Under the pieces are notes generated by a model, which worked only from the letters and a program-made list of their open reading frames with translations, made no database searches and was not told the DNA's origin. Shown here one piece after another: positions 14,039-63,990 of a stretch of DNA of 64,000 nucleotides. Source of the stretch: Mobula hypostoma. Its lineage: Eukaryota. The stretch is taken from positions 69,752,001 through 69,816,000 of the forward strand of contig NC_086108.1 of assembly GCF_963921235.1 (NCBI RefSeq). Reading direction: 5' to 3'. Position 1 is the stretch's first letter. The number at the start of each line of letters is the position of its first letter. Made by a program: the position numbers and the translations under genes.

Positions 14039-14040
14039 TG

Positions 14041-21263: not shown

Positions 21264-22630
21264 TGTTGGAGCTGATTGTTTCATTCTTGTTGTTTAATTG
21301 ATATTTTCTTTGCAGTTTAACAATTTAATATTGGCTAGTGTTTTATGTAATTACTTGTATACAAGTAACTGCTCGCTCTGCTTCCTTGTCGTATCCAAGT
21401 ACCTGTATGTGTTTAATATGCCTCTAGTGGTTAAACAAAGTGCAATTTTGGAAAGCTCTGTAGGCTTCTCTAGTGCATTGTTTGAATAATGACTTTCTCA
21501 TTGGTTAATTCTATCTATAAATTTGAATGGAATTTTTCCCTATCTGTGGGTATAAAATAGCAAAGCACAAAGCAGCACCATCTTCTCTTAAACATGAGGA
21601 AATCTACAGATGCTGGAATTTCAAGCAACACACGTAAAAGTTGCTGGTGAATGCAGGACAGGCCAGGCAGCATCTCTAGGAAGAGGTACAATCGACGTTT
21701 CGGGCCGAGACCCGTCGTCAGGACTAACTGAAAGAAGAGCTAGTAAGAGATTTGAGAGGGGAGGGGGAGATCCAAAATGATAGGATAAAACAGGAGGGGA
21801 AGGGATGGAGCCAAGAGCTGGACAGTTGATTGGCAAAAGGGATATGAGAGGATCATGGGACAGGAGGCCTAGGGAAAAAGAAGGAAAAGGGGGAGGGGGG
21901 AAGCCCAGAGGATGGGCAAGGGGTATAGTAAGAGGGACAGAGGTGAGAAAAAGGAGAGAGAGAAAAAGAAAGTGTGTATATAAATAAATAACGGATGGGG
22001 TACGAGGGGGAGGTGGGGCATTAGTGCAAGTTTGAGAAGTCAATGTTCATGCCATCAGGTTGGAGGCTACCCAGACGGAATATAAGGTGTTGTTTCTCCA
22101 ACCTGAGTGTGGCTTCATCTTTACAGTAGAGGAGGCCGTGGATAGACATATCAGAATGGGAATGGGACGTGGAATTAAAATGTGTGGCCACTGGGAGATC
22201 CTGCTTTCTCTGGCGGACAGAGCGTAGGTGTTCAGTTTCGCCAATCACCTGTCCAGCTGTTGGCTCCACCCCTCCCCCTCCTGTCTTCTCCTATCATTTC
22301 AGATCTCCCCCTCCCCCTCCCACTTTCAAATCTCTTACTAGCTCTTCTTTCAGTTAGTCCTGAAGAAGGGTCTTGGCCGGAAATGTCGACTGTACCTCTT
22401 CTTAAAGATGCTGCCTGGCCTGCTGCGTTCACCAGCAACTTTTATGTGTGTTGCCATCTTCTCTGAGTTCTTTTATCTCCCTCTTTGCTTAGTAGACATC
22501 TATCAATGTCTGTTCTGTCCCTGTTTTCTTTGTTCTATAAACCCTTAATAAAACAATCATGAAGCATTAAGTTTTGTGCCTTTTTCCTGACTTCTGAAAG
22601 AACCTTTGATTACAACGTAAGAATACAATA
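21264..22630 (+). repeat. ERV 3' LTR, interrupted by a Penelope-like element
   Basis: Preceded by PPT aaaggggg (21253-21260); starts TGTTGGA; TATAAAA at 21551; AATAAA at 22547; ends gaatacaata. Confidence 0.85.
21589..22453 (-). mobile_element. Penelope-like element fragment with inverted terminal repeat
   Basis: GIY-YIG C-terminal EHLRSV..VATHFN..RLGSLQPDGMN on the minus strand plus an inverted copy of the terminal repeat; TSD ccatcttctct (21578-21588, 22454-22464). Confidence 0.9.
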
Positions 22631-24464
22631 ACTCAGGCAATATCAACTGCATTTCCATCACCAAATAATTAGATGGTCCAGAATCTTCTCCTAGTCTGTT
22701 GGTCTACATGGTAAATCCAAACTCAGTTTATATGCATCTGTCACTGTCAACTTGATGGTAATAGCCAACACTGTTTTCAGGGGCAAGGTCTTGGGTGTGG
22801 AAATACTGTTGGACTATTGTAATGGACAACTCTCGAGGTTGTGGAGTCTATTATAACAGCTACTTGAAAAAGAATCCAAACTCAGTATCTTTCAGTATCT
22901 CAGTTTATATATTTCCTTGAGACCTAGAAGGAGGTAATTTGGACCATTGACTTTCCCAGCTCTCCAAGCATCAATTCCATGTTTCCCTGTGACCCCTCTC
23001 CAATGTCCATTAACCTCTAGTGAGTCTCCTGTCATCTACATACACCAGACATTTAACCAGCAGCTTTCCTAGCAAGAAACAGGAGCACCTAAGGAAACCC
23101 ACATTGAAAATGAACAAATTGCACAATGACCCCACCCCAAAAAAAATTATAATTGAATTTGAGTCACTGTAGCAGAGTGAAATTAAAGACTGTGTGAAAT
23201 CAAGCATACCTTTTTTCTAATTAGCATCTTAATTTATTCCTGTTGAATTTGTTGAAGATTTTGAAAGAGTTTATGCAGAACTGCATTTGTGAAATTTGTA
23301 GTCCGTTTAATTGTAGGAAGATTTAGAGATGAGGCAGAACCTGCTGTTCATTACTTTGTAATTTCTCAGCTTAGCTGTTGATGGGAATGCACTAACTTGG
23401 CTCTATCATGAATTCTGGGGTGTTCTTACAAGTGCACATGAAAGACCTTCCATGCACATCATCCTTTCAAGGTTTTACTCTACACAAACCAAGGTTGTGT
23501 TTTCTGTAACTTTCAAGGTTAAAATTCAAAGTAAATTTATTATCAAAGTATGTGTAGTATATATTACTATATATAACCCCAAGATTAGTTCCCTTGCAGG
23601 CATACTCAGTAAATCCACAAAACATAATAGAATCAGTGAAAGACTACACCCAAAAGGACAACCAACCAATGTGCAAAAGACACCAAACTTTGCAAATACA
23701 AAAGAAAAAATAAATCGATAAACAATAAATATTGAGAACATGAGATGAAGAGTCTTTGAAAGTGAGTCCATTGGTTGTGGGAACAGTTCAGTGAAAGGTT
23801 GGTTTGACTGAAGCCTTTAATGTATTAAGACAAACCACAGTGATAAACATGAATTATTTTTGATTTAGGAAGTATGGTCGAAAGACAAGAGCATGGCCTT
23901 GCAGAAAAAGATAATATTGTGTCACTTCTATAGTAGGTTGAAAGTTTTTTAACCAACTGCATTAGAACTAGGAGCAGGAGTAAGCTATCTGGCTAGTTAA
24001 GCCTGAAATGCCATTCAATAAGATCATGGTTGAACTGGCCATGAACTCGGCTCCACCTTCTCGTCTTTCCCCATACCCTTAATTCATGCATTATGCAAAA
24101 ATCTATTTAACTGTGCCTTAAATATTGATGTAGCTCATACTGCTGCCTTGGGCTACCTCAATAAATATATTTTTCCTAATCTCTGTCCTAAATTCTGCTC
24201 TATCTTGAAGCCATGTCCCCAATTAAAGGGAGGTAACCCCAGAATCAGTATTTGAAGTGAGGTTAGCTGTGATGTCATTGAGTGACAGAAGGCTCAAGCA
24301 GGCTAATTGCTTTGTTATGTTCCTCTGCTCTCCATTCCTGTGTTTTCTAGGGCAAATCAGGCCTATTATGGCTCTTTGACAAAGTACTAATGCTCAGATC
24401 CACACCTTGTTTTGTATTTATCCCCTCAAAGGTAATCAAATACCTGTTAAATTCTTATTTAATA

Positions 24465-25140
24465 TGATTTAGATTAGATTATGAGAACACTCAGTCCTCT
24501 GTGGTCATTTAGAAATGCATACATGCATTAAGAAATGATACATTATTTCTCCAGACTGATATCACAGAAAACAGGACAGACCAAAGACTAACACTGACAG
24601 AACCACATAATTATAACATATAGTTACAGCAGTGCAAAGCAATACCATAATTTGATAAAGAACAGACCATGGGCACAGTAAAAAAAAAGTCTCAAAGTCC
24701 CGAGTCGATCGACTCCCTAATCTCTGATAGCAGGCGGCAAAAGGGAGAAACTCCCTGCCATAAACTTCCAGGCACCGTCAACTTGGAAGCAGCCGATCCC
24801 AGCCGACCCTGAGTCCATCCGTCCGAAAACTCCGAGCTTCCGAGCAGCCTCTCCGTTACCACCTCCTGAACGCCATCCTCTGCCGAGCGCCTTCGACCTC
24901 TGCCCGGCTGCTGAAACACGCAAAGCCGAGGATTTCGGGGCCTTCAGCTCCGGAGATTCCGGTTTCCACACAGTAGCAGCGGCAGCAAAGCAGCATTTCA
25001 GAAGTTTTCCATATGTTCCGCTGTGCTGTCACGCCTGTCTCCATCAAATCAGGATTGTGCACGGTCCCCTACTTGACAGATAACAGATATTCATCACTGA
25101 AGTGGCCGCGCGTACTGCCATCGCTCCGCCATCTTCTCCC
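24465..25140 (-). mobile_element. Non-autonomous retroelement of about 670 bp with a (TAATC)n tail
   Basis: Homologous to 37259-37920 and 38311-38660; the minus strand starts GGAGAAGATGGCGG and ends ataatctaatcta. Confidence 0.75.
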
Positions 25141-27669
25141 CCCTCCCGGGAGGTTTTATAGTATTGGTCTTCATTTGACTTCAGTCTAGATCACATCAAT
25201 TCCTGAGTGAAAAGAAAATTGTCCTTACTCAAGGTCCTTTATCAATAGTACTGATTACTGTCAGAATCAGGTTGTTATCGGAAACGTAAAACTTATTTTG
25301 CAGCAACAGTACAGCGTAGAACAAAGAAATTATAAGTTACAAAAACAAATAAGTAGGCACAATGAGGTAGTGTTCATGGACCATTCAGAAATCTGATGGC
25401 AGAAGGAAAGAAGCATCCACAAATGTTAATTGTGGATATCCTCGCTGATTATAGTAATGTGAAGAGGGCCTTTCCCAGGTGATGAGAGCCTTCAATGATG
25501 GATGGCTCTATGTTGAAGCACTGTCTCTTGAAGATAATCCTTGATGGAGGGAGGGTTGTTCCTGTGATGGAATTGGTGGAGTCTGAAGGAAAGAAATTCA
25601 CCACTTATTCTAACTAAAGTATTATATTCATTCTTATGAAAGCAATGTTGTTCAAAACAATCATTTTTATATGCCATATATATTTATTCGTAGCATGTGA
25701 ATATCACTGACAAGCATTTATTGCCTATCCAGTGTCCTCTGAAGAGAGGGAAGGTAACTGTCCAGAGGAATTACATTGACCAGACCAGTTCAGATTGGCC
25801 GAGTTCCTTCCTTGAAGGACATAAGTTAGCCAATGACAATCAAAACATTTCACGGTTTTCATGTAAACAGAGTTTTCTGTTGAATATTGAAATGAGCAAA
25901 ATTGCTTCAATAACAACTGAAATTTATTTTTAGATGTACAGGGAATAGAGAGATGGTTTAGTGTAGAAGAGTGCTACAGAGGTTATAGTTCAGCCATGAT
26001 CTATTTGGCAGAGCAGGTACAAGGGCTGTTCAATTTTGTGTGCTCTTGAAACTGAGGAAAATGCCTTCATTGAAATCCTTCCAGCATCGTGGATAGAGAT
26101 GTCTTTTTAGGATAAGTTGGGAAACACTCCTATGCATAAGTTGTAGATTCACCATTAACAATTGCTTCCGAGTGAATTGAAAAAGGTGAATTTGTTAATT
26201 TTTACGTTATTTGTTGGATTAATACTGTATGTAGTAGGTAAATTGGTGGAGTATCTTTGTTTTGTGGATGTTGACTGCAAGCTCCATTCCCTTATGCTTA
26301 CTTGAATCAGTTGGTAAATAAATGCTGGAGTGTTATCAACTGCTACTTAAAGACTGAAATTAGACCAATCCAGATTCTTGACTGGAAGTGATGTAGGCTA
26401 AACATTTGTCCTGTAGATCATCTACACTCCCAACATAGCTCTTTGAAGAATAGATAGAGCAGTGTAGCAAAAGATAGGGAAAAATGTTAGGGCAATGATG
26501 CAGCCTTCCTTAATACTATTCTACATTGAGATTAGGCCTAGTGTGAATCAACTGTTTGAGATTATGGCTTAAAGTTTGCATATAATTTCTAAGAGCAGCT
26601 ACATTTGAGAAGATTGGTCTTTGATCCCTTTCAATTGATGGAGTCAAAAAGGCTTTTGTGAGGTTAAAAAAAAGCTATGGGGTGATTGATGCTATTTCCT
26701 GCACATCTGCTGAAGTTGAAGTTCATGTCCATTATGCCTTCCGATGGACAGATTCCACACTGATGGGGAAAATGTTCTTTAGCGATTGACAAGGCAGAGT
26801 CGAGCAGGACAGTGGTGCAGACAATGTGGAGATGCTCCTGTAGTTATCACAATGGAATTTATCTCCTAAAGATGGTCACAATCAAAGGTTCCCTGGGATG
26901 TCCTGTTCTTCCCAGATGTGGGAAATGATGTGAATTTGTGATCCCTATTCCCGACTGCTGGACGTTAATATTTCTTCAATGGTATCATCTACTCATTAGG
27001 TCTTGTTAACTTTCAGTTTGCATACAAAATTTTCACCTTGTTGGGGAGGAAGGTCAGACCTAATATCACCCAGCTAATTTATTATTAAAACAGAAGATTT
27101 TAGACAAATGTGTTCACACAAGATCATTGAGAGCCTTCCTGAACCGGAAGCCTGAGATGAACCATGAGTTCTGCAGTCTGCTGAAGATCAGATCAGAGGC
27201 ATTTAAGTTTGGTGACGAAGAAAGTTACAAGAGGTTCTAGGTACAATCTCTGGAAAGCCATCTCATGGTCAAGGTCCAATTTTGGACGAAATTTGAATTG
27301 ATGAAGGATGCTCGACAGTTGTGGCAGGGCTTGAATACTATCACCCCTTAAAATTAAATCAAGCAACAGCGATAACAACAGGGCTTCGCTTCCAGATGAG
27401 CTGAGTGCCTTCTATGCTTTGACCGTCAAAACATGGAGGAACCATCACAAACGCCCACAGCCCCTGATGGTCCTGTGATTTTGGTCTCTGAAGACGATGT
27501 GGGAGCAGCCTTCAGGTGGGTGAACCCACGAAAAGCATCCGGCCCAGGTGGAGTACCTGATCAAGTACTAAGAGACTTGTGAACTCAACTGACTGGAGTG
27601 TTCACTGAGACCCTTAACATTTTCCTTCAGCAGTCTGAGGTACTCACTTCTTCAAGCAGACTTCAATTA

Positions 27670-28623
27670 CCCTGGACAACATATTTTTTAAAAACGCAAA
27701 GAACAGGAATTCTGCAGATGCTGGAAGTTCAAGCAACACACATCAAAGTTGCTTCAGTTAGTCCTGACGAAGGGTCTCGGCCTGAAACTCGACTGTACCT
27801 CTTCCTAGAGATGCTGCGTGGCCTGCTGCATTCACCAGCAACTTTGATGTGTGTTGCTTAATATTTTTTAAACTGTTGCTTCCTCAGAATTTTTTTTTGT
27901 TTTTGATAGACTGCTTGAGGCTGATCTAGTAATTTCAGACTACTTGTATTACATAGGACTTTGGAGAATCAAGAAATTGACTTATATAATACATTTAGTT
28001 GCATTATGGTGCTGACACTTTGCAATAGTTCAACTAACTAAAAATGTTTGATGAATTTTGTTTGTACTCTGTGTCTGAGGCTTCTAGGTTAAGTGTGCAA
28101 CAATAATCAGCTAGTATCGATGGATTCCAGTTGCCCTGATACCATTTCTTTTTGACTCCAATGTTCTGGTGAAACCTTTCACCATGTTCGCCACTGACAG
28201 CGCCAAGGTTTGCAGGGAAGAAGTCTAAATGGGAATGCAGAAAATGAATCTTTAGTGACATGTTGCACTTCATGGTTTTGCATGTTTGAAGCATGTTGTC
28301 AACCAGCTGCTCTGTCGTTGCCAAGAAAATTTGCAACAAAATCCTTGAATGCCTTCCATGGAATTTTCTCCAGTCCCACTAGAATCTTTTTGAATTGCCT
28401 GTGATTGATGACCTGTTTGATTTGTGAACTAACAAAAATAACTTCCTTAATCTTGGCATCAGTTATTCTGACTTGAATTATGAATTGAGAAAAAAAAAAC
28501 AAATATAGTTGATTTTTAAAAAAATGGTGCGTGTTAGGAAAATTTCATGGTGATTTTCATCAGCCCAAAATCCATAAGGCACACCCAAAAGTATCTAGGA
28601 AGCAAAACCCTTGTCCAGAGTTG
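27670..28623 (-). mobile_element. DNA transposon remnant, possibly Sola-type
   Basis: MSLKIHFLHSHLDFFPANLGAVSGEHGERFHQ...WNPSILADYC; imperfect inverted ends ctggacaa..ttgcttcct / aggaagcaa..ttgtccag; superfamily assignment from memory only. Confidence 0.55.
27693..27860. mobile_element. Miniature Penelope terminal-repeat insertion
   Basis: Inverted pieces of the Penelope terminal repeat; TSD atattttttaaa (27681-27692, 27861-27872). Confidence 0.8.
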
Positions 28624-30249
28624 TACCTGCCTCACTCGGTAGCACTTACATCCACAAGGATTAGGTGTTTTGAGAGGCTGGTGTTGAAACATATCAATTC
28701 CTATCTTAGAAGTGACTTAGATCTGCTCCAATTTGCCTGTTGGAACAACAGGTCCACAGCTGATGTCACCTCATTGGCTCTTCACTCAGCCCTGGAACAT
28801 CTGGACGGCAAAGATGCATGCATCAGGATGCTTATTATCAACTACAGCTCAGCATTCATCCCCTCAAAACTAATCAATGATCTCCTAGACCTTGGTCTCA
28901 ATAACTCCTTGTGCAATCACAAATAACTGTTTATTAAGTATGCCCGCAAAAAAAAAGAATCTTAGGGTTGTATTTGGTGACGTACTTTTGTTAATAAATT
29001 TACTTTGAACTTTGACTAGCATTGTAAGCAGATTCACAAACAGCCTGAATGAAAGGGTCTGTTGCATTTAATATCCAAGCATCTTCCAAATAGAAAGCAA
29101 CACACATTAAAGTTGCTGGTCCCCCTCTTTTCCTTCGCTGCATCGATGACTGCATTGGCGCTGCTTCCTGCACGCATGCTGTGCTCGTTGACTTTATTAA
29201 CTTTGCCTCCAACTTTCACTCTGCCCTCAAGTTTACCTGGTCCATTTCTGACACCTCCCTCCCCTTTCTAGATCTTTCTGTCTCTATCTCTGGAGACAGC
29301 TTATCCACTGATGTCTACTATAAGCCTACTGACTCTCACAGCTATCTGGACTATTCCTCTTCTCACCCTGTCTCTTGCAAAAATGCCATCCCCTTCTCGC
29401 AATTCCTCCGTCTTCGCCATATCTGCTCTCAGGATGAGGCTTTTCATTCCAGGATGAGGGAAATGTCTTCCTTTTTTAAAGAAAGGGGCTTCCCTTCCTC
29501 CACCATCAACTCTGCTCTCAAACGCATCTCCCCCATTTCACGCACATCTGCTCTCATTCATCCTCCCGCCACCCCACTAGGAATAGGGTTCCCCTGGTCC
29601 TCACCTACCACCCCACCAGCCTCCGGGTCCAACATATTATTCTCCGTAACTTCCGCCACCTCCAACGGGATCCCACCACTAAGCACATCTTTCCCTCCCC
29701 CCCCTTTCCGCAGGGATCGCTCCCTACGCGACTCCCTTGTCCATTCGTCCCCCCCCATCCCTCCCCACTGATCTCCCTCCTGGCACTTATCCTTGTAAGC
29801 GGAACAAGTGCTACACATGCCCTTACATTTCCTCCCTTACCACCGTTCAGGGCCCCAGACAATTCTTCCAGGTGAGGCGACACTTCACCTGTGAGTCGGC
29901 TGGGGTGATACACTGCGTCCGGTGCTCCCGATGTGGCCTTCTGTATATTGGCGAGACGCGACGCAGACTGGGAGACCGCTTTGCTGAACACCTACGCTCT
30001 GTCCGCCAGAGAAAGCAGGATCTCCCAGTGGCCACACATTTTAATTCCACATCCTATTCCCATTCTGACATGTCTATCCACGGCCTCCTCTACTGTAAAG
30101 ATGAATCCACACTCAGGTTGGAGGAACAACACCTTATATTCCGTCTGGGTAGCCTCCAACCTGATGGCATGAACACTGACTTCTCTAACTTCTGCTAATG
30201 CCCCACCTCCCCTTCGTACCCCATCCGTTATTTATTTATATACACACAT

Positions 30250-30267
30250 TCTCTCTCTGTCTCTCTC

Positions 30268-30317
<50 letters not shown>

Positions 30318-30321
30318 TCTC
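30250..30321. repeat. (CT)n microsatellite within the Penelope repeat
   Basis: Imperfect CT dinucleotide run. Confidence 0.9.
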
Positions 30322-30547
30322 CTTTTCTCCCTCTGTTCCTCTGACTATACCCCTTGCCCATCCTCTGGGTTCCCCCCCACCTTGTCTTTCTCCCCGGACC
30401 TCCTGTCCCATGATCCTCTCATATCCCCTTTGTCAATCACCTGTCCAGCTCTCGGCTCCATCCCTCCCCCTCCTGTCTTCTCCTATCATTTTGTATCTCC
30501 CCCTCCCCCTCCCATTTTCAAATCTCTTACTAGCTCTTCCTTCAGTT

Positions 30548-30583
30548 AGTCCTGAAGAAGGGTCTCGGCCTGAAACGTCGACT
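30548..30583 (+). ncRNA. Minimal type I hammerhead ribozyme motif (Penelope-associated)
   Basis: AGTC-CTGAAGA-AGGGTCTCGGCCT-GAAA-CGTC-GACT: intact core, stem I AGTC/GACT, palindromic ACGT in place of stem III. Confidence 0.8.
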
Positions 30584-31299
30584 GCACCTCTTCCTAGAGA
30601 TGCTGCCTGGCCTGCTGCGTTCACCAGCAACTTTGATGTGTGTTGCTTGAATTTCCAGCATCTGCAGAATTCCTGTTGTTTGACTTCCAAATAGAAATAT
30701 TTGCTTAACTTCAGTAAATGCCTTTTGACCTGCTGGAGACAGCATTATTCTATTTCTCCAGGCATGTCCTATAAATTTATACTGACTGGATGTGCTAAAT
30801 GTTAGCTAAATATACCGTGACGATTCTATTACTATTTGCTATCCTGCTCCCTTGAGTCACTGCAGTTACGTGTGACTGCATAACTTAATTGTTTTGCATT
30901 TTAATGCGTAGTTGTATTCAGAATTAGTGATATCTAACAACGACTTAATTGCAGTTATCAACACTGGGTATTTGAACAAAAAGGTTAAATGATTTTCAAA
31001 GAGAACTCCGGCGTTAAAGTTACATTTCGACTCCTAAATCTTTACTGTGTACTTGATTCTACAAGGACCACGATAACAATTGAAAATTATAAGGTATGAG
31101 ATAATGCAAAATGCATTGCAAAATCCAGATAAAATACATCCAAACTCTGCAAGTGTGCCAAGGAATTTCGAAAGCTTTTTTAAAAATAAATTTGTCCTTT
31201 TATTTGTTGCAATAAAATTGGCAATTTTACACGTAGTGTGTTTGGTCGCAAGAATTTTTTTTAAAAATGTTCTCCTTCCTCAAATGTAAACAAATAATG

Positions 31300-31460
31300 A
31301 CATAGCCTAATGGTGGTGATCCTAGACCAATCAGTGCATAACTCTGTTATATGCAGGTGCTTAAGCCAATCGGGTCGCTGCTGCGAGCAGGTTCTGAAAT
31401 TCATAGATTAGCAATAGAGGAAGTGCTGTTTTGTGGAGCCTCTAAGAAGCCCGGCGTTCA
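31300..31460 (+). promoter_or_regulatory. Putative intronic alternative promoter
   Basis: CCAAT at 31327 and 31366, GGAAGT (ETS-type) at 31419, CpG retention in a repeat-free block, directly upstream of the candidate exon. Confidence 0.6.
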
Positions 31461-31579
31461 AAACTGTTCGCGATCAGAGCTCTCTGTTTAATCAGAGGAA
31501 ATAAAATTATTTATTTTGCATATGTTTTCTATGAAAATGAACAAATCTTCGTTAACTTTGGATTGAAGCAGATGAAAAT

Positions 31580-31603
31580 ATGGCAGTGAAAGGATTCACC
31601 GGT
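31580..31603 (+). CDS. OSBPL9: Putative coding part of an alternative first exon of OSBPL9 (MAVKGFTG)
   Basis: Strong Kozak aatATGg, 8 codons, then a consensus donor GTAAGT at 31604; phase 0, so it can join the 54050 exon in frame. Confidence 0.65.
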
Positions 31604-33104
31604 GTAAGTTGCATTAACATCCTCAGTTGGGTAGTAGGCCACGTTGCTTTCTGTTTTCGATCTAGTGTCCGTGGTCATTTTAAGTGTTTTAAATATTATT
31701 TTGGAACTTTAAAACAGCTCTAGTTTTGTTTAGGTTGTGGTTATTGTGGTGTTCATGCTGGATCGTGTATTGTTTTTACTTACGTATTTGACAAATTAAT
31801 GATGTAGAAATACTGACGTGGATATTGAAATCGCTGGATATTTTAAATCATTTTCTGTGCCTCATATTTAATTAGGACTTTCGTCACTGTATTTTAATAT
31901 CAAAAGGGAATGGTTTCTCTCGATTTGCCCCTCCCTTCCTCTATATTGGAAAAAGTCGACGTTTTTCGTATTTATGACACTGATTCTGAGTGCAACCTTT
32001 GCAAATCTGTAGATTTTAGGATTTCAGGATCTCTTTTTTTTAAAAAAAAGGGCCAGAGTTAATCCTCAAAATTATATTTAATTCACTCCAAAAAGCAGTG
32101 GCAGAAATAAATGCTTTCAAGACAGGTAGGCAATGTTAGACTTTGTTTAGATTTTTTTCCTCTTGGAACTATGCATTTGGGTAACATTTTTGAAGACATA
32201 ATTCAGTAAAACTTGTCATCTTCACTTGTATCATTCTCTAACATACATACATATATGTAAATCCTATTGATAATTATTTATATTTTCCTCCATTTGCTTC
32301 TAATCTTGTTCACTTGTTCTTGGTTATGGTTTAAAGACGTGGTTTATTTTCTGATATCTTCCTTGAGCATCTATTGTTGACGTGCAGATCTTGCCAGTAA
32401 GTATTGGTTGGGTATTACTGCTAAACTTGACCATAATCCCATAAAATCTATCTAGCTTGAATTATTGGATACCGTATAGGACCATGGGCATTATTGAGCA
32501 TTTTGGAATAACTTTTTAGCTTCTCCATCAGCACAGTAACTAATTTTTACCCTTTGGTTTAGAACATGCCTAATTTTCATACTCTTAATTTTGATCAGAA
32601 TAGTAAATGGCTAAATTTTATAAAGGCCAAGTGTTTGATTCTGGCAGAATGGTTAGCATGGTGATAAAGGCAAACAAATAACCGGATTCTTTTTCTTTGC
32701 CTTTTAAGCTATCCTAGAGTCCCTTAAATCCTTAAAATAAGAATATTAATTTAATAAACATTTAATTTTAATGCAGATTTAAATAAAATAAATTGACAAT
32801 GTTTCATGGGATTAACAAAACTGTAAAACAAGTCAAAGGCTAGATTTAGGTAACAGTATTTTAAAATTTTGCACAGATTGCTATTTTGCATGACTGTTCT
32901 GTGCTCCTCACCTTTGAAACTGATCCTCAAATCAGTTCCAAAGAGTAACTCTGAAGTATTTGGTGTTTTACTAGCTCATTTCTATGTGGGTTGTTAGAAA
33001 CAGAAGTAGTTCATTTAAAAAAAATAGTTTGTGACTGCTTTTTGTGGTTCAGCTGAGTTGGACTGCTTCCCCATTCACACTCCAGATTAGATACAGTATC
33101 AGAT

Positions 33105-33275
33105 GTTCTGTTGGTACCATTCACTTTTGAGCCAAAAGATTATGGTTCAAGTTCCATGCCAAATACTTGAGACAAGAAAAAAGATTTAGTTAGACACTCC
33201 AGAGTAATTTTGGTGAGTGCTGCCCTGTCAGGGGTGTGGTGTTTCAGATCCTAAATTTAACCAAGGATCAATCTG
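33105..33275 (+). mobile_element. Ancient Deu-domain SINE-like remnant
   Basis: Resembles the remembered SacSINE1/AmnSINE1 consensus (ggttcaagt.cca, gacactcca, gagtgctgc.ctgtc.g.ggtg..gt.tttc.gat); highly diverged. Confidence 0.5.
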
Positions 33276-36200
33276 AAGTGTGTAGGAGTGATCTTTAATT
33301 TTACTTTGCAAGGACACAATATTGTTCTGGCCAGTAGTTAATCCATAATGAAGGGACTGCACTATGAAACAATTTCAGTACCTCTACTGTGATATTTAGT
33401 ACATAAATAAATGCTTTTGTGTATAGTATAACCAGCAGGATTTTTATTTGAGGAAGTGCGATCAATGATTAATTTCATCATGCAATGATTATTGCTTTGG
33501 CAAGAGGACTCTAATCATAATTCCAGAATTTGGGAGAATGACTTTCAATTGTGAAATATCTTTTATGGTCTTAAATCTAATTGATTGTTCTGGAATTGGT
33601 CATAGTTATAAGCTTTTTGATCTAGGATGTCTGTTAGAATGTGTGAACTAATTTTCTAAAGTTGCAATGATGTTAGAACAAATGTTGGCATCTAGTGCAT
33701 TATTGTAATAAATACAAAATTAGGAAAGGATAGAGCAAATGGAATATCCCTCACTAATCCATTTGCTTACAAAATTTGGGTTATAAAGCAAGCATGTCAA
33801 TTTTTCTTTCACATATAGTGTCACATATAGGATTTTTGTGTGGGGTTCCAGTTCCTCAATTTATGCAATGGAAGGAGGTCTTTAAGTTGTAAGCTTTCCA
33901 CATAGATCCTTCAGTGTATATCTGAGCATATGTCCTAGACCTTGAAATCAGCCAGTTTGCAACATTCATTCAGGGATGGCTCCTTGTTTTGGAAGACCAG
34001 CAGGTTTAGGACTGACCAAGTCCAGCTTGTGCCATATTGACTTCTATAATAGTTGCTACAATCTGTGCTCTTCAGAACTGCTTTTAAAGTTCAAAGTAAA
34101 TTTATTATTAAAGTACATATATTTTACTATATGCAACCTGAGATTTGTTTTCTTGCGTGCATACTTATTAATTTCAAAAACCATAATAGAATTAATGAAA
34201 GATCGCACCCAACAGGACAAACAACCAATGTGCAAGTACAAAAGAAAAAAAGAAATAATAATTAATACATAAGCAATAAATATTGAGAAAGTGAGTCCAT
34301 AGCTTGTGGGAACAGTTCATTGATGGGGCAAATGAAGTTGAGTGAATTATCCCCACTGGTTCAAGAGCCTGATGGCTGAAAATAATAACTGTGCCTGAAC
34401 CTGGTGATGAGGGGCCTGAAGCTCCTGTACCTCCTTCCTTATGGCAGCACCGAAAAGAGAGCATGGTCCGTGATGCACAACTGTCAGGATGTACCCTGGC
34501 AAAAACCCATGCATCCCTCTCCAGATCATCTTGGGAAATGGAAGATGGTCTCATCTTCACCATATGGGACTTGAATGTAAAGTGTTGTGGCATTGTATCT
34601 CTGTGCATGAAGAATTTGACAGATATGGTCCTTTCACAACCAGCTAAATAAGATTTTGATGCTTTTCTAAAGTTTTGCTCATAAGACATTACAATAAATG
34701 ACTGACAGTAAAAGCATTGAACAATTTGTCAGGCTCTACCACAATGTATGTTTCACAGCAACAAGGCTAGATCAGTCCTTCAGGGTCAGAGAGTATATTG
34801 TGACACTTGCTGTTTCAAACACCAAGGTGTTCAGGGTCAGACACCCTGAGCCAATAGGCTGGTCCTGGACTTATTTCCATTTGGCATAGTTCGCATATTG
34901 TTGTTTGATTGTTTCTGGTTTTTGTATTGCTATATTTATGCTCTATTCTAGGTTGGTGCGGCTGTAACAAAACCCAATTTCCCTCGGGATCAATAAAGTA
35001 TATCTATCTATCTATCTAAGCTTAGGGTCCATGCATACATTGATCCAGACACTTACAAAAATAGCCTTCAGGATATGGATCTTGTTCAATACATGTCCTC
35101 CACTCCACTTTCTCTGGAGGTTTCTACATTATGTTTCTGTGCTTGCAGTCCTTTTTCATATTGCAGTGGGAAGAAAAATGTTTGGGATGAGGTATTGGCC
35201 ACCTCTACACCATGCTTGTCAATGCTATTTGCACTTCTCACCTAATGACCAGTTTCTTCTCCTCTCCCCCCCCCCCCCAACTCAATGCCAATTTTTGTGA
35301 GGGGGGAATTGTATTCTGTATAATTGGCTGAATTCTCCATCTGGCTCTTGCTGCATGCCTAGTTCCTTTGAATCATATCCTGAACAACCTCAAGGATTAG
35401 GATCTGATGATACAGGAAACAAAGGACTGGTCCAAGCTGACTGCCGACCCTGATGTGGTAGAAGGAATGCAAGAGGGAGGGAGAATTACTGATCTATTCA
35501 GGGAGAATGTAAAATGGTATTTAGATTATATGTTAGTGGGATCATCCAACAGCCATGTGGGTAGAACTTCAAGATAACTGAGAAGCAATCACTTTGCTAT
35601 TGGCCCCCCAGTTATCAATGGAAATTCAACGAACAGATGTGTGCATACATCACAGAAAGGTGCAGGAGCAGTAAGGGGGATTTTAATTTTAATTTTCCAA
35701 GTGTTAACTGGGATTGTCTTGATGCAAGGGCCCTGGATGGGGTAGAATTTGTTTAGTACATCCAAGAAAATTTTCAAAAGATGATGTTTAGGTAGTCCTA
35801 CTAGAGAGAGGCAATGCTTGATCTTGTCTTAAGAAATGAAGTTGTGCAGGTGATAGAAGTGCTGGCAGGGAGCACTTTGGGAACAGTAACTATAATTCTT
35901 AAAGTTTCAAGATAGTTATTGAAAGGGATATGGTTGATAAGTTACAATAAAAATAAATAATACAGAAAAAGGAATAGCAAGATAGTATTCATGGACCATT
36001 CAGAAATCTGATAGCGGTGGGGGGGGGAGGTGCGGGGAGAAGCTATTCCTGAAATGTTGAGTGTGGGTCTTCAGGCTCCTCTGCCTCCTCCCTGATGGTA
36101 ATAATGAAGAGGGCATGTCCTGGGTCCTTAATGATGGATGCCACTTTCTTGAGAAACTGCTTTTTGAAGACATCCTCAGTCATGGGAGGCTTATGTCCAT

Positions 36201-36374
36201 AATGGAACTGGCTGATCTACAATCCTCTTACAATCCATTGTAACCAATCAGAATGCTCTCCACTGTACATCATTTAAAGAGAGTCAGTGAAAGTTCAGGT
36301 TCAATATGTTCAGAGAAGATGTAAGGAAAAGATGGCAATATTAGGGATCCTTAAATGACAAAGGGACATTAAAA

Positions 36375-49570: not shown

Positions 49571-50149
49571 GCTAGGAAAGCATTAAATCCTTTTTTAACA
49601 TAGTTTTCCTGATATAGATATTTATTGCAAAAATAAGTATGCATGGTTTTAAACCAGATCAGATTTACTGTTATTATCACTGAATATATAGTGTTCGCTC
49701 ATGAGCGACAAAAGAAAAATGCCAATTAGCCCAACCATCTATTATTCAAATACTGATGTTCAATGTGTCTGCGAGGATTTCAGAATGTATTGTTCAATGT
49801 CATGTGATCTTGTAGCCATCAAACTGGCGTGAGATGTTTCCTGTGAAAAACATCTCACTGCTCTCGGGTTGTAAAAAGTCAATTACTGCTTCATTTGAAA
49901 GTAAGCATCATGCATTTTTTTTTCATTATGGAAGGGGTTTAAAGAATCAAGGAATGGCGCTGCATGCCATGTGCCAGCTTACACATGCCATCTTGGACAT
50001 GTGTGCCATAGGTTCGCTACTCCCGCTCTAGAGTCTGATTTATTTTGGGGGAAAAAATTAGAGCAAATTTGTGTTAATTGCCTGTTGCGTGATATTTAAA
50101 GTGCAATGTTAAAAAGCAATTATACTTCTCCTTGGTACTGATCTTATGG

Positions 50150-50550
50150 AAGTGAATGCTGGACCATTTCCCCAGCAATGGAAAAGAGACTAGAAGCAGC
50201 TGAATTATGGTTCTACAGGAGAATGTTTAAAAATATCATGGACCACACACATATCAAATGAAGAAGTTCTCAGAAGAGCCCAAGCAATTAGATCACTCAT
50301 ACCAACAATAAGAGAAAGACAACTCAGATTCCTAGGACACATCATGCGGAAAGATGAACTAGAAAAACTCGTACTCTTTGGAAAGATCGAGGGGAGCAAG
50401 CCTAGAGGAAGATCTGGGCTTATGTACATGAAAAGCCTAGCCAGGTGGCTACACATCGAGGAAATGGAAGTCATCCAAAGAACAAGGGATAGATCTGTAT
50501 GGAAAACCATGGTCACCAACATCCGCATCGGATATGGTACCCACACAGAC
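50150..50550 (+). mobile_element. RTE-clade LINE 3' fragment
   Basis: KRLEAAELWFYRRM..ISWTTHISNEEVL..RQLRFLGHIMR..GKIEGSKPRGR. Confidence 0.8.
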
Positions 50551-51203
50551 AGACTGATTTTAACATCTTTAATAAGTGGAAAAGTTGGGATTTTATTTGA
50601 TTTGGTGAAACTCAAAGTTATTTTGTGGTGGAACAGAAAAACTCCCAATAATAGAAGTACATGATGGCCACAGCAATCCTTCAGGTTTGCTCTAACATTC
50701 AAATGGTGCTGTATATCTTTTTCTGTGCACTTTCTGACTTTCCTATCCCTTGCTTAACTTCAAAATCTACCAATCTGAATCTTCTTATACTTGATGACTG
50801 AGCATCTCTGGGATAGAGAATTTCTAAGAGCTGCAATCGCAAGGTATTTACAAGCATTTCAGAAATGAGTACAAGCAACCCACACGTTATTGCAGTGGGT
50901 TGCAATCTTTGAAAAGGGCCAGCATCTCATTTTTCTGTAAAGCAAAGCCATGTCAACGGTGCATGTGTTAAGAAATAATTGAAAAAAAAACTTGACTTTT
51001 TCACAAATTCTGTATTTTGTTCTCTATTTCAAATTTGGGGTGTTGGTCTGTGAATTCTGTAAGGGCAACTTGAATGGCCATAGCCTGGGGGTTGCTTGTA
51101 GGCTGTGCTGAACAACAAAATAGTCTGTATCCCACAGTATTATTTTCATTAATTTAAATATCTTAACTGGTATTTCAAGTAAGCAAAGGTTGTAATTATT
51201 AAA

Positions 51204-53218
51204 GCAACATACATAAATGTTGCTGGTGAACGCAGCAGGCCAGGCAGCATCTCTAGGAAGAGGTACAGTCGACGTTTTGGGCCGAGATCATTCGTCAGGA
51301 CTAACTGAAAGAAGAGCTAGTAAGAGATTTGGAAGTGGGAGGGGGAAGGGAAATGATAGGAGAAGACAGGAGGGGGAGGGATGGAGCCAAGAGCTGGACA
51401 GTTGATTGGCAAAAGGATATGAGAGGATCATGGGACAGGAGCCCTTAGGGAGAAAGAAAAGGGGGGGGAACCCAGAGGATGGGCAAGGGGTATATTGAGA
51501 AGGACACAGGGAGAAAAAGGAGAGAGAGAAAAAGAATGTGTGTATATACATAAATAATGGATGGGGTACGAGGGGGAGGTGGGGGCGTTAGCGGAAGTTT
51601 GAGAAGTCAATGTTAATGCCATCAGGTTGGAGGCTACCCAGACGGAATACAAGGTGTTGTTCCTCCAACCTGAGTGTGGCTTCATCTTGACAGTAGAGGA
51701 GGCCAAGGATAGACATATCAGAATGGGAATGGGGCGTGGAATTAAAATGTGTGGCCACTGGGAGATCCTGCCTTCTCTGGCAGACAGAGCGTAGGTGTTC
51801 AGCGAAACCATCTCCCCAGTCTGCGTCGGATCTCGCCAATATATAGAAGGCCGCATCGGGAGCACCAGACGCAGTATATCACCCCAGCCGACTCACAGGT
51901 GAAGTGTCGCCTCACCTGAATGGTGGTGAGGGAGGAAGTGTAAGGGCATGTGTAGCATTTGTTCCACCAGGAGGGAGATTGGTGGGGAGGGATTGCGGGG
52001 ACAAATGGACAAGGGAGTCACGTAGGGAGCAATCCCTGCGGAAAGCAGAGAGAGGGGGTGAGGGAAAGATGTGCGTAGTGGTCGGATCCCGTTGGAGGTG
52101 GCGGAAGTTACGGAGAATTATATGTTGGACCCGGAGGCTGGTGGGGTGGCAGGTGAGGACAAGGTGAACCCTATTCCTAGTGGGCTGGCGGGAGGATGGA
52201 GTGAGAACAGATGTGCGTGAAATGGGGGAGATGCGTTTGAGAGTAGAATTGATGGTGAAGGAAGGGAAGCCCCTTTCTTTAAAAAAGGAGGACATCTCCT
52301 TCGTCCTGGAATGAAAAACCTCATCCTGAGAGCAGATGCAGCGGAGACAGAGGAATTGCGAGAAGGGGATGGCATTCTTGCAAGAGACAGGGTGAGAATA
52401 GGAATAGTCCAGATAGCTGTGAGAGTCAGTAGGCTTATAGTAGACATCAGTAGATAAGCTGTCTCCAGAGATAGAGACAGAAAGATCAAGAAAGGGGAGG
52501 GAAGTGTCAGAAATGGACCAGGTAAACTTGAGGGCAGGGTGAAAGTTGGAGGCAAAGTTAATGAAGTCAACGATTGTTTCACTGAACACCTATGCTCTGT
52601 CTGCCAGAGAAGGCAGGATCTCCCAGTGGCCACACATTTTAATTCCATGTCTATCCACGGCCTCCTCTACTGTAAAGATGAAGCCACACTCAGGTTGGAG
52701 GAACGGCACCTTATATTCCGTCTGGGTAGCCTCCAACCTGATGGCATGAACATTGACTTCTCTAACTTCCGCTAATGCCCCACCTCCCCCTCGTATCCCA
52801 TCCGTTATTTATTTATTTATTTATATACACGATTCTTTTTCTCTCTCTCCTTTTTCTCCCTCTGTCCTTCTCATTATACTCCTTGCTCATCCTCTGGGTT
52901 TCCCCCCTCCCCCTTTTCTTTCTTTTTCCCTAGGCCTCCTGTCCCATGATCCTCTCATATCCCTTTTGCCAATCAACTGTCCAACTCTTGGCTCCATCCC
53001 TCCCCTTCCTGTCGTCTTCTATCATTTCGGATCTCCCCCTCCCCCTCCCACTTCCAAATCTCTTACTAGCTCTTCTTTCAGTTAGTCCTGACGAAGGGTC
53101 TCGGCCCGAAATGTTGACTGTACCTTTTCCTAGAGATGCTACCTGGCCTGCTGCATTCACCAGCAACTTCTACGTGTGTTGCTTGAAATTCCAGCATCTG
53201 CAGATTTCCTAGTGTTTG
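51204..53218 (-). mobile_element. Penelope-like element with head-to-head inverted structure
   Basis: Minus-strand RT/GIY-YIG/terminal repeat (52570 to 51204) fused to a plus-strand GIY-YIG tail/terminal repeat (52571-53218); TSD tgtaattattaaa (51191-51203, 53219-53231). Confidence 0.95.
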
Positions 53219-54049
53219 TGTAATTATTAAATTTGTGTTTTGTTTTTAGCTGCTTTAGTTGCAAACCGAGTTGTTTGGTAATTTCTACAGTATCAAAACA
53301 TTTGGTAGCATGAAGTGAAACTGCATCAAATTTATCACTCAGATTGTCACGTGGATTAATTGTTGGTCTTGGAGATGCATCGCTGATGGATCAGAGAAGA
53401 AAAAGTAGACAATTTTAAGAATGTATTAGGGGAGGTTATAAAAATGCTGGCTGATAATAGCATTGCAGCTGGGTGAATTGGGTGCAATCCTGACCTTGGG
53501 CTGTCTGTGTTGAGTTTGCACGTTCTCTCTGAGGTCCCTTTGGGCACTCTGGGTTCCTTTTCATCCCTAATTTGTGCTTGTAAGTCAATTGGTGACTAGA
53601 TTATCCCTCTGTCTGGGTAATTGGCAAAACTAATCAAAGGCAAAGTGTGGGACTTGTGGGAAAATGAGAGAGTCTAAATATTAGGGTCACAAGAAAATAA
53701 CGGAAATAAGTTGATGGGATTGTGCTGCAGTGTGGATGGCTTGTGTGATAATGCGCAAGCAGCTAATAGCAGTTTGATAGATTTTATTAGGAGTTGGAAA
53801 GCTGGAAGGATTCTGGTTTTAAATCTTCAATAAAATTGGTTGATTATATTCATGTAAGATGAAAAAAGCAGGTGTTAAGCAGGAGTGTATCTATCTACTT
53901 CTGGTGTAATTTCCTGTTTTGAGTATCCACTTGAGCAATTTATGCAAAAGGATATGATATGGTAATGATACCTGAGGTCTTTAAAGTTCAAAAGTTTCTT
54001 CTAATAGCCAGAAGATGCCTTACAAATTACTGTAACCATTTTTTTGTAG

Positions 54050-54145
54050 GGTTCTGAAGCAGGATTTGTTCCAAGTGTACAAGATTTTGACAAGAAGCTT
54101 GCTGAAGCTGATGCCTACTTACAGATTTTAATTGATCAACTGAAG
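54050..54145 (+). CDS. OSBPL9: OSBPL9 next coding exon
   Basis: tttttgtag|GGT...AAG|gtaatt; 96 nt, [32 protein letters not shown], matching remembered human [32 protein letters not shown]; phase 0, compatible with the 4557-4633 exon. Confidence 0.95.
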
Positions 54146-58445: not shown

Positions 58446-58459
58446 ATTTTTAGAAGTGT

Positions 58460-62852: not shown

Positions 62853-62866
62853 ACAATGGTAGAGGA

Positions 62867-63990
62867 GGCAATGATAAACCCTTCACCACCTTCAAAGAAA
62901 CTAAATAGCCCTTTCAGGTGAGGCAGGATTTCACTTGTACCTCCAAGAACATCTATTACATTCCAGTCACTAAGTGGTCCCTGACAGTAGAATAGGCAAT
63001 ATTTTTGTGGTACACAGAGAGTTAGTGATGATATGTCATTTCAACTTCCTTTCTCATTCCCACTCTGACCTCTCTGCCCTCTGCCTTTTCCACTGTCATA
63101 GTGAGGCCAAACATCTACCAGAAGAACAGTGCCTACTTTTCCACTTGGGAACCTTTAACCCAATGTATGGATGGTGGATTTTTCCATTTTCAGGTAACCC
63201 ACTCCAGCCCTCCCCCCACCCCACTTCCCCACTTCCACCAGTCCACCCAGAGCTTTCTCACTTTGTTCACCTTTTCTTCCTTTTTCCTCACTCCAAACTC
63301 ATTACATAGATGTGTCACCCTCCCCACCTTCCCAATTCCATCTGGCCATCTCTCCCTTATCTGGTTCTACTTATCTCTTCCTAGCCTTTGTCCACCATTC
63401 TTTCCTCCCTCCTCCTCTCACTTGTCTCCGTTATTACAATCCAAATGACTATGATCTCATCTATTTTCACCTATCACATAGCAGCTCCTGTATCATCCTC
63501 CCTTCTACGTTCTCAGTCCTAATGTAGTCTCAACCTGAAATGTCAACCATCCCTTTGCCTTCATGAATGGATGCTGCTTGACCCACTGAGTTCTTCCAGT
63601 ACGCAAACACGAGGAAATCTGCAGATGCTGGAATTTCAAGCACACACATAAAGTTGCTGGTGAATGCAGCAGGCCAGGCAGCATCTCTAGGAAGAGGTAC
63701 AGTTGATGTTTCAGGCCGAGACCCTTCGTCAGTTCTTCCAGTAGTTTATTTCCCACTGGGGATGAAGGGTAGAGGCAATAGCCATGGCAGTCAAGGAAGC
63801 TTGCAAAGGATATGAGTAGATAGTCTAACTTTTGAGATGAAGACACAGAGATCAAGAAAAGGAAGTAAAGAGTCAGCTGACATGAAGGTGAGGGCAGCCT
63901 AGAATCCATCAGGTTAGTTAAGAGTTTATAAAGCAGAAGGTGAAAGTTATAATAAAGGTGATTCCCACATTAAGACTGCACAATTATCTG
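62867..63990. mobile_element. Old Penelope-like remnants with a younger 129-bp terminal-repeat insertion (63602-63730)
   Basis: CHFNFLSHSHSDLS..EEQCLLFHLGT; TSD agttcttccagta (63589-63601, 63731-63743). Confidence 0.7.

Follow-up and report, generated by a model that had tools for sequence, protein, structure and literature searches.

Minimal hammerhead motifs in relics of a Penelope-like retroelement within a long OSBPL9 intron of the ray Mobula hypostoma

The OSBPL9 locus

The window, meaning the whole stretch of 64,000 nucleotides analysed here, carries part of OSBPL9 on the plus strand, as the sequence-only reading of this DNA had proposed. Two exons located by tblastn are consecutive in ray ORP9 proteins, their adjacency being judged on the proteins of Mobula, Hemitrygon and Hypanus (myliobatiform rays), and no further OSBPL9 exon was found in the window by tblastn. 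The features of the host gene are as follows.

4557..4633, plus strand: OSBPL9 exon encoding the last part of the PH domain, with a phase-0 end and then a GT donor (tblastn of ray ORP9 proteins, residues 77–108; AG/GT ends)
4634..54049, plus strand: OSBPL9 intron of 49.4 kb, with seven of the eight hammerhead motifs inside (five sense, two antisense)
31417..31603, plus strand: putative first exon, internal to the gene, of an ORP9S-like transcript without the PH domain, with a predicted start site (two contigs and sequence)
54050..54145, plus strand: OSBPL9 exon of 32 codons, phase 0

The internal first exon contains an ATG at 31580 that opens 8 codons running to a phase-0 GT donor at 31604, and CCAAT-like boxes lie near 31328 and 31369. 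Contig X2 record 13 (2689 nt) matches positions 31417–31604 with no mismatches and then departs from the stretch, and contig X6 record 29 also supports the exon; the contigs, possibly of RNA origin, come from four of the seven listed runs, all of which consist of contigs, and were aligned to positions 30330–36300 only. Judged from these contigs and the DNA, the exon would start and be joined to the downstream OSBPL9 exon as in an ORP9S-like transcript. The alternative N-terminus that it would encode is present in none of the 136 proteins compared.

Hammerhead motifs

All eight motifs claimed by the sequence-only reading were recovered, each at the same place and on the same strand. They derive from six insertion events, two pairs of motifs being the two arms of one inverted insertion each.

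21690..21725, minus strand: minimal hammerhead with an intact core, lying antisense to OSBPL9; A9b is changed and stem I contains one G·U
22356..22391, plus strand: decayed hammerhead, with U at 15.2 and with G at 11.1, which breaks the pairing of G10.1
27760..27794, plus strand: hammerhead without G16.2
30548..30583, plus strand: minimal hammerhead; core intact, N7 is A, G10.1·U11.1; predicted cut at 30579/30580
43403..43438, plus strand: minimal hammerhead with G10.1·U11.1, matching the copies' majority sequence throughout; predicted cut at 43434/43435
51267..51302, minus strand: decayed hammerhead, antisense; G12 is A, stem II broken
53084..53119, plus strand: hammerhead in which all core boxes, G10.1–C11.1 and stem I are intact; CpG decay has given U15.2 and U17
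63701..63732, minus strand: decayed hammerhead, beginning at C3, in the next intron

The two predicted cuts, after GUC, agree with those given earlier, and the tblastn exons and contigs bear out that 30548 and 43403 lie in one OSBPL9 intron on either side of the internal first exon. A minimal-hammerhead descriptor (both core boxes, NUH, the 15.2–16.2 pair, stem I of at least 4 and stem II of at least 3) is matched at four sites in the window: 30548+, 43403+, 53084+ and 21690−. These are not chance matches, since 60 Markov-resampled windows gave a mean of 0.03 matches and a maximum of 1. A scan of the window against Rfam (E up to 10) returned 14 matches, all below gathering score and all to families other than hammerheads, an absence that is not evidence against minimal motifs. 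The earlier count of intact copies had been limited to 30548 and 43403, with 21690 nearly so; those cores are intact, but 53084 keeps every core box too. It has a perfect stem I and a perfect stem II with G10.1–C11.1, and because its sole changes are two CpG transitions (ACGUC to AUGUU) it is not clearly dead.

The core boxes CUGANGA and GAAA, the NUH cut triplet and both stems are complete in the same four of the eight copies. Helix I has 5 pairs and is the open end of the motif, with 100% of its cells paired in the six full 36-nt copies aligned, and in the same alignment the 10.1/11.1 pair is G–C in two copies, G·U in two (30548 and 43403) and unpaired in two. An unpaired nucleotide stands between A9 and G10.1 (A in seven of eight copies, C in 21690). 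The 15.2–16.2 segment is palindromic, without a helix III hairpin, and reads ACGU in four of the eight copies and AUGU in two, and is broken in the other two. None of nine stem pairs changes on both sides, although six such close copies hold too little divergence to inform on covariation. U occupies position 11.1, giving G10.1·U11.1 in place of the conserved G–C, in four of eight copies (30548, 43403, 27760 and 63701). Copies 30548 and 43403 have 11 diagnostic columns in common, against 0–4 in other pairings, which indicates a subfamily, and CpG decay is not established as the source of their U11.1. As it is common to the 30548/43403/27760 subfamily, U11.1 may have been inherited within it rather than produced by decay.

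Penelope-like element insertions

The eight motifs sit in six insertions of one family of Penelope-like retroelements (PLEs) with GIY-YIG and a Cys-rich linker. The family is represented in the window by the following insertions.

21590..22454: inverted PLE insertion; minus arm 21590–22235 (tailed, EN end and pLTR), plus arm 22236–22454 (untailed); 11-nt TSD
27693..27860: short PLE insertion of the inverted kind, whose minus arm has the tail and whose plus arm has none; 12-nt TSD
29095..30682, plus strand: 5'-truncated PLE; RT C-terminal relic, Cys linker, GIY-YIG, pLTR and tail, with a short inverted arm at 29095–29120; 14-nt shared flank (TSD)
36375..36508: tail-only inverted PLE insertion, without hammerhead; 14-nt TSD
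42558..43537, plus strand: 5'-truncated PLE; linker, GIY-YIG, pLTR and tail; no TSD found on inspection
51198..53218: inverted PLE insertion; minus arm 51198–52573 (untailed), plus arm 52582–53218 (tailed); 13-nt TSD
63604..63732, minus strand: pLTR end in the following intron, truncated on its 5' side so that it begins with C3 of the hammerhead; 13-nt TSD

TSDs of 11–14 nt are thus present at six of the seven insertions examined, and each of the five inverted insertions has one tailed (long) and one untailed (short) arm, the optional tail of the family being about 35 nt. All 13 arms found terminate downstream of the cut site, either at +60 to +73 nt or at +102 to +103 nt, and none of the eight hammerhead-bearing arms ends at the cut site itself; loose contig ends at 30647 and at 30679–30682 coincide with the same two end points in other copies. 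Truncation at the 5' end, inverted arms, an optional tail of 30–40 nt and a TSD are described as PLE traits (PMC8557442, PMC3846280).

The PLE at 29095..30682 matches P0016 with 37–39% identity (tblastn, E 2.6e-53), and the alignment of its C-terminal part to this protein, which has RVT_1 and GIY-YIG, agrees with an RT followed by a C-terminal GIY-YIG; neither of the window's own two RT relics gave a Pfam hit. The PLE at 42558..43537 has a Pfam GIY-YIG match (E 9.7e-05) and 94% identity to a Mobula hypostoma predicted protein. The pattern VIY-CxxC-YIG is present in the window's GIY-YIG, and a pattern match to a CX2-5CxxC Zn-finger-like linker lies upstream of it in frame 42479–43105. Such a linker between RT and EN is reported for the Neptune and Nematis clades and as absent in Penelope and Poseidon (PMC8557442); by its Cys-rich linker, the family is classed here as an EN+ PLE of putative Neptune/Nematis type. 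No intact element ORF was found in the window. Family sequence is abundant in the contigs, with a summed depth (not a copy number) of 1.7e5–7.6e5 on the hammerhead bin and 0–0.8 in the next two unique bins.

In the long arms the hammerhead lies about 330–350 nt downstream of the GIY-YIG stop, in the pLTR. The class proposed in the sequence-only reading, minimal type I hammerheads in the pLTR ends of Penelope-like elements, therefore holds on the descriptor, the GIY-YIG and the position in the element, and the motif is of the minimal type I hammerhead kind described in 2014. The pLTR at 30548 is unlikely to have supplied the internal promoter, since the first exon begins about 735 nt downstream in unique sequence.

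Sequence decay

CpG sites are changed in 11 of 73 cases in the motifs and in 13 of 98 in the flanks (p=0.82), and non-CpG positions in 4 of 210 (1.9%) and 117 of 3227 (3.6%), respectively (p=0.25, with little power from 8 copies). By this comparison the motifs appear to decay no slower than their flanks, with no sign of selection after insertion; above-neutral conservation of the motif, a mark of domesticated intronic ribozymes of the RECK/CPEB3 type, is not seen in the ray motifs at this low power. The probability that all essential positions remain unchanged is 0.15–0.19 per copy, so that two intact copies of seven are expected by chance (probability of two or more about 0.28–0.42). The motif at 43403 has no changes at all from the majority sequence.

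Folding and pairing

Nearest-neighbour energies leave out the tertiary stabilisation of the hammerhead core and hence understate the active fold. On these energies, the double hammerhead of 30548 and 43403 is modelled at −9.5 kcal/mol; taken separately the monomers come to −16.9, and an inactive duplex to −24.3. Loop closure adds a further 7–10 kcal/mol, which leaves the dimer some 14–17 kcal/mol uphill in the model. The heterodimer of 43403 and 53084 is modelled at −10.0 kcal/mol and is no worse. In a 296-nt context the probability of stems I and II is 0.01 or less in all four sense copies tested.

Sense–antisense duplexes within the same intron are predicted at −100 to −1600 kcal/mol. Positions 21625–21838 fold back on 22236–22454 (87% identical), and in the insertion at 51198..53218 a 615-nt fold-back pairs 51199–51812 with 52572–53187 (86% identical); longer-range inverted pairs reach 950 nt, and the fold-back closest to the 3' splice site stops about 860 nt short of it.

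Two further candidates were set aside. An upstream hairpin capturing the core was rejected as a designed off-switch because shuffled pyrimidine-rich flanks capture the core equally in 4–37 of 100 trials. Contig X1 record 2 (depth 180), which ends at 30579, was not counted as a cleavage end, since this is a CpG variant site at which assembly branches are expected. No position at which many molecules start or stop was reported from the contigs, which by their nature do not reveal molecule ends.

Discussion

The motifs are very probably neutrally decaying 3' fragments of a high-copy PLE of Neptune/Nematis type, inserted repeatedly in the long ray OSBPL9 intron and without a host role. The element anatomy, the TSDs, the inverted arms, the hammerhead sequence and the pair of fixed 3' ends are matters of direct observation. 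By analogy with the Poseidon element of Anolis, reverse transcription would begin internally on the element RNA, at two points that follow the ribozyme by about 68 and 103 nt, and because this inferred start lies downstream every 3' fragment would inherit an uncut hammerhead; priming on both target strands would similarly give rise to the inverted pairs. The ribozyme's role would have been in the active element, where pLTRs are in tandem and the element protein probably assisted. Solo copies in host pre-mRNA are most likely misfolded or paired with antisense copies and spliced out uncut, and would play no part in the choice between ORP9L and ORP9S. Nothing found, in the models or otherwise, suggests that the motifs cut OSBPL9 RNA.

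It is improbable that the insertions instead affect the pre-mRNA through long sense–antisense duplexes, as editing substrates or by altered splicing or back-splicing, and not by catalysis. The two fold-backs, the longer-range pairs and the closeness of one fold-back to the 3' splice site are in keeping with such an effect, but inverted arms follow from the mechanics of PLE insertion and need no function.

We consider it very unlikely that an active element elsewhere provides an RT-EN protein that binds relic pLTR ends in host pre-mRNAs, folds one or joins two, and triggers cleavage. The Anolis PLE hammerhead is reported to need the element protein, a predicted dimer, for cleavage (PMC11167929), and the family is heavily represented in the contigs. 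Against this, the minimal active Anolis RNA reaches +172, about 55–60 nt past the reverse transcription start sites at +111 to +118 (PMC11167929), and since the relic arms stop at such start sites they would, by analogy, be without part of the binding region; the window has no intact ORF to supply the protein, and Anolis RNA-seq is reported to show no RNA ends at the site (PMC11167929). A similarly slight probability attaches to conditional cut sites formed by relic hammerheads in ray introns, at which two sense copies lying kilobases apart, joined most plausibly by a host chaperone or by an active PLE's dimeric protein, would cut nascent OSBPL9 RNA; if so, transposon activity would tune ORP9L versus ORP9S by way of dispersed, split ribozymes, and the same might hold for many genes of this genome.

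The sequence-only reading had further proposed that 30548 and 43403 cut only the long transcript, a transcript from the internal promoter having one intact copy. This is not supported, since 53084 passes the descriptor and the short transcript also holds two candidate hammerheads, 43403 and 53084. That the two copies, 12.9 kb apart, come together in the nascent long transcript and cut it as a double hammerhead, lowering ORP9L relative to ORP9S, is extremely unlikely: both cores are intact and in sense orientation, ACGU is self-complementary, the internal first exon sits between them, and there are precedents in the intronic CPEB3 ribozyme, which acts on host mRNA and whose cut site is 9931 nt away from the following exon (PMC10919898), and in the split Clec2 hammerhead, with helix I of 150–1500 nt (PMC6155905), but 53084 offers a partner in the short transcript that models equally well, the dimer is uphill in the model, antisense family copies compete for the same sequence, no selection is seen on the motifs, the 3' splice site would be reached about 3 min after 43403 is made at 3.8 kb/min (a rate from mammalian cells, PMC2995048), and introns cut by a slower hammerhead are still spliced (PMC2995048, reporting Dye et al. 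and Bentley's group). Were long-range or protein-assisted cleavage true, a host pre-mRNA would be the target of dispersed transposon relics working as a split ribozyme, and what PLE hammerheads do in vivo would become testable; the evidence points away from both.

Comparison with known systems

Amniote RECK, CTCL and DTNB hammerheads (PMC6155905) and CPEB3 (PMC10919898) resemble the ray motifs in lying on the sense strand of a long intron, some 10 kb away from the exon that follows. Theirs are conserved across species, whereas the ray motifs are high-copy, decay at the rate of their flanks and have no helix III; the mammalian CPEB3 ribozyme cleaves on its own with a half-life of 2–3 min (PMC10919898).

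Non-LTR retrozymes, reported in one chondrichthyan genome, are likewise type I hammerheads of PLE pLTR origin that need a partner, but they form short head-to-tail tandems of units of about 170–400 nt, which bring partners together (PMC7229834; bioRxiv 10.64898/2026.07.22.740005). No head-to-tail tandem of the ray family occurs in the window, where self-BLAST gives dispersed and inverted copies and same-strand copies are at least 2.8 kb apart.

The ray motifs also resemble the minimal hammerheads of metazoan PLE pLTRs, whose monomers are described as inactive and whose dimers and trimers cleave weakly (Cervera & de la Peña 2014, PMC4209133). As in the ray, these are type I, with a helix I of 4–5 bp, an extra nucleotide between 9 and 10.1 and a palindromic 15.2–16.2 without loop 3; they are mostly solo motifs from truncated elements, and opposite-strand pairs lie 100–700 bp apart, as do 21690 and 22356 at 630 nt. 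In contrast, the ray helix II is only 4 bp, as against 7–8 bp in the Schistosoma families, and half of the ray copies have G10.1·U11.1 where G–C is conserved (PMC4209133). Cartilaginous fish are not named in the text of PMC4209133 consulted here, and our searches of the literature on PLE, Poseidon, pLTR and shark hammerheads gave no account of this ray family, which the supplements of that paper and of the 2026 preprint may list.

PAc, a Poseidon element of Anolis carolinensis, does not cleave unless the element protein is present, and RNA-seq revealed no ends at its site (Frangieh et al. 2024, PMC11167929). Its hammerhead lies upstream of two fixed 3' end points 30–40 nt apart (the tail), and its copies carry the hammerhead uncut and are inserted mostly at AT-rich sites, all as in the ray. 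Unlike PAc, the ray family has the Cys-rich RT–EN linker of Neptune/Nematis type that Poseidon is without, and has no ATG at the start of stem II; dependence on protein is reported for PAc only. The ray motifs add a family to an RNA class known since 2014 and have modest value as a clean example of PLE copies that carry an uncut hammerhead and end at two fixed downstream points, as the 2024 in vitro work on Anolis predicts.

Hammerhead motifs and their repeat family

An active Penelope-like element (PLE) very probably left copies of its uncut RNA in the window, and its relics in the OSBPL9 pre-mRNA would be misfolded or antisense-paired and leave with the intron. All eight predicted motifs of the sequence-only reading, at 21690(-), 22356(+), 27760(+), 30548(+), 43403(+), 51267(-), 53084(+) and 63701(-), were present by sequence check, and their stems, core boxes and cut fit a minimal type I hammerhead: a 4–5 bp stem I, CUGANGA, one extra A and a stem II of 4 bp closed by a 4-nt loop, followed in the 3' half by GAAA, CG-UC and the predicted cut. 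A descriptor demanding both boxes, NUH, the 15.2-16.2 pair and both stems finds four sites in the window (30548+, 43403+, 53084+ and 21690-) vs a chance average of 0.03 over 60 resampled windows; the 14 weak matches of an Rfam search of the window included no hammerhead family. The cores of 30548 and 43403 are intact as had been read, but 53084, listed there as a changed copy, is also descriptor-positive; it retains all core boxes, the G10.1-C11.1 stem II and stem I, its changes being two CpG transitions that give a GUU triplet and one wobble in stem III.

Self-BLAST of the window assigns all eight motifs to six insertions of a single repeat family, with a tail-only insertion (36375-36508) and a half motif as extra members. 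The anticipated setting in Penelope terminal repeats (pLTRs) is borne out by the long arms, which code for the C-terminal portion of a Penelope-like ORF. This portion is 94% identical to a Mobula hypostoma predicted protein and 37–39% identical to a 927-aa protein carrying RVT_1 and GIY-YIG; Pfam matches GIY-YIG at 42479-43105 (E 9.7e-05) and neither of two RT relics inside the window, and pattern matching finds a CX2-5CxxC linker as well as a CxxC that separates GIY from YIG. In sequence the family appears to match the definition of the Neptune/Nematis type in the available text of PMC8557442. It is an additional member of the hammerhead class described in 2014; among the papers listed by a literature search none concerns this ray family, and hammerhead retrozymes have been reported from one chondrichthyan genome in a 2026 preprint (bioRxiv 10.64898/2026.07.22.740005).

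Copies 30548 and 43403 belong to one subfamily (93% identity; 11 columns in common vs 0–4 for other pairings) and share U11.1. In two sets of sequencing contigs, loose ends continue into related but different sequence, 64 before 30548 (X3) and 145 (X1) and 66 (X3) behind 30584. From these we infer sister subfamilies that probably have the hammerhead block in common and diverge at its edges, a pattern that suggests selection on the ribozyme during the active element's past, not in the host.

Other repeats in the window
765-838 (+), sister pLTR subfamily fragment with the 3' hammerhead half only, ~79% identical (self-BLAST)
7028-8320 (-), LINE-like relic (RVT_1 match 7604-8320, E 2.3e-27)
14313-15856 and 44296-45925, two copies of a ~1.6-kb repeat, 82% identical
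38110-40020, ~1.9-kb element with inverted ends 38115-38263 and 39872-40020, 83% identical
56408-56950 (+), 58965-59738 (-) and 61316-62080 (+), LINE-like relics recognised by eye
59984-60977 (-), older PLE relic (tblastn, 41–56% identity in pieces to protein P0001)
63514-63590 (+), hammerhead with its pLTR, both much decayed, from an older family of Penelope-like type (relics of an ORF at ~62880-63190)

The copy at 63604-63732 went into the 3' end of the pLTR at 63514-63590. The descriptor finds no hammerhead with the older relic at 59984-60977, and Pfam gives no match on the three LINE-like relics recognised by eye. MiRNA-like Rfam matches in the ~1.6-kb repeat were rejected as spurious products of its long internal palindrome (~14870-15095 and ~44830-45063). 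The decayed interior of the ~1.9-kb element seems to resemble a Tc1/mariner transposon.

The OSBPL9 intron and an internal first exon

With exon 54050-54145 as query, ORP9 (OSBPL9 product) proteins were recovered among the best 120 of 751 matches, and because exon 4557-4633 is followed directly by exon 54050-54145 in these proteins the intron is 4634-54049. Exon-junction residues agree with Mobula, Hemitrygon and Hypanus and disagree with skates, sawfish and sharks among the matches listed, which places the host among the myliobatiform rays. Seven motifs lie in this intron, five in sense and two in antisense orientation, and 63701 is in the one that follows; 30548 and 43403 do share intron 4634-54049, as predicted. 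Between them, next to the candidate promoter, a first exon is supported by contigs (presumed RNA) of two studies: the end of a 2689-nt contig matches 31417-31604 with 0 mismatches and departs from the stretch at a GT donor, and a second-study contig has the same pattern over 31426-31604.

31310-31603 (+), candidate promoter with two CCAAT-like boxes and a GGAAG motif, and first exon, for an internally initiated ORP9S-like transcript

The supported exon (~31417-31603) has an ATG at 31580, eight codons and a phase-0 donor; its encoded N-terminus occurs in none of 136 proteins compared. ORP9S is known in mammals as a PH-less promoter variant (PMC4177916, in excerpt).

Insertion anatomy

Target-site duplications of 11–14 nt accompany six of the seven insertions examined. 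Arm 3' ends lie 60–73 nt or 102–103 nt past the predicted cut in 13/13 arms found, and the same two end points recur in other copies as loose ends of contigs (30647 and 30679-30682); of the eight arms with a hammerhead, none stops at the cut site. All five inverted insertions have one long and one short arm, one with the optional 3' tail and one untailed:

21590-22454
27693-27860
29095-30682
36375-36508
51198-53218

Such pairs are expected if the two target strands were primed from different RT start sites. By analogy with Anolis, uncut RNA would have been reverse-transcribed from two start sites downstream of the hammerhead, a mechanism that would yield the 5'-truncated and inverted copies observed, with the motif in each.

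In the tail-only insertion, the plus arm (36453-36508, +) begins ~4–7 nt downstream of where the cut is predicted rather than at the cut itself, and its junction shows microhomology. Pre-mRNA fold-backs at 51199-53187 (~615 nt) and 21625-22454 (~220 nt), 86–87% identical, are possible editing substrates; the former stops ~860 nt short of the 3' splice site.

Fate of the motifs in the pre-mRNA

The energy models used here omit tertiary contacts and proteins, so that their values rank alternatives and are no proof of inactivity. Folded within 296 nt of context, stems I and II reach a probability of at most 0.01 in all four sense copies modelled, and same-intron antisense arms give duplexes of -100 to -1600 kcal/mol (-62 to -64 kcal/mol for the 36-nt motif alone with antisense). 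The hammerhead copies would, on these models, fold wrongly or pair with antisense arms, and be removed together with the intron. That the insertions supply regulatory double-stranded RNA is improbable. Protein-assisted cleavage of the relics is decidedly unlikely.

Least credible, at a very slim chance, is regulation by long-range pairing of 30548 and 43403, which would cut the long OSBPL9 transcript. PLE motifs of such type probably cleave as dimers according to part of a review (PMC6765202), and the intronic CPEB3 ribozyme, although ~10 kb away from the following exon, is able to influence its own mRNA (PMC10919898, in part). However, in the portions available of PMC4209133, the monomer of a Schistosoma minimal motif does not cleave, and its dimers and trimers do so at a low level. 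According to the available text of PMC11167929, the Anolis motif does not cleave without the element protein, is dispensable for insertion, and leaves no RNA-seq ends at the hammerhead site. Even after a cut, splicing continued in introns that a slower hammerhead cleaved, while a fast HDV ribozyme blocked it (PMC2995048, in part); transcription at 3.8 kb/min would reach the 3' splice site ~3 min after making 43403. Modelled as a double hammerhead, 30548+43403 comes to -9.5 kcal/mol, above both the separate monomers (-16.9) and an inactive duplex (-24.3); at 20 °C it lies ~10 kcal/mol above the monomers, and simple polymer estimates add 7–10 kcal/mol for closing the 12.9-kb loop. A short transcript starting from 31.4 kb would have 43403 and also descriptor-positive 53084, and the modelled heterodimer of these two (-10.0 kcal/mol) is no worse than 30548+43403. 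Given this equally good modelled partner, an on/off difference between the two transcripts does not follow from sequence. Copy 53084 also lies within a local fold-back that would sequester it.

Changes were counted against subfamily-aware majority bases, gapped cells excluded. CpG changes affect 11/73 motif cells vs 13/98 in the flanks (p=0.82), and non-CpG changes 4/210 vs 117/3227 (p=0.25), nominally lower in the motif at low power. A copy retains all essential positions with probability 0.15–0.19, which gives ~0.28–0.42 for at least two of seven full-length copies intact. Compensatory stem changes occur in 0/9 pairs over six copies, a divergence too low to inform.

Comparison with known elements

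The preferred reading, copying of uncut RNA, can be set beside known elements as far as the available texts describe them. PLE insertions generally have an optional 30–40 nt tail at one end (PMC8557442, PMC3846280), and the Anolis element uses two internal RT start sites with both target strands extended (PMC11167929). The window insertions and arm ends match these patterns, so that 21690/22356 and 51267/53084 are each one event. The Anolis minimal active RNA reaches ~55–60 nt past the RT start sites (PMC11167929), whereas the ray relics stop at such start sites.
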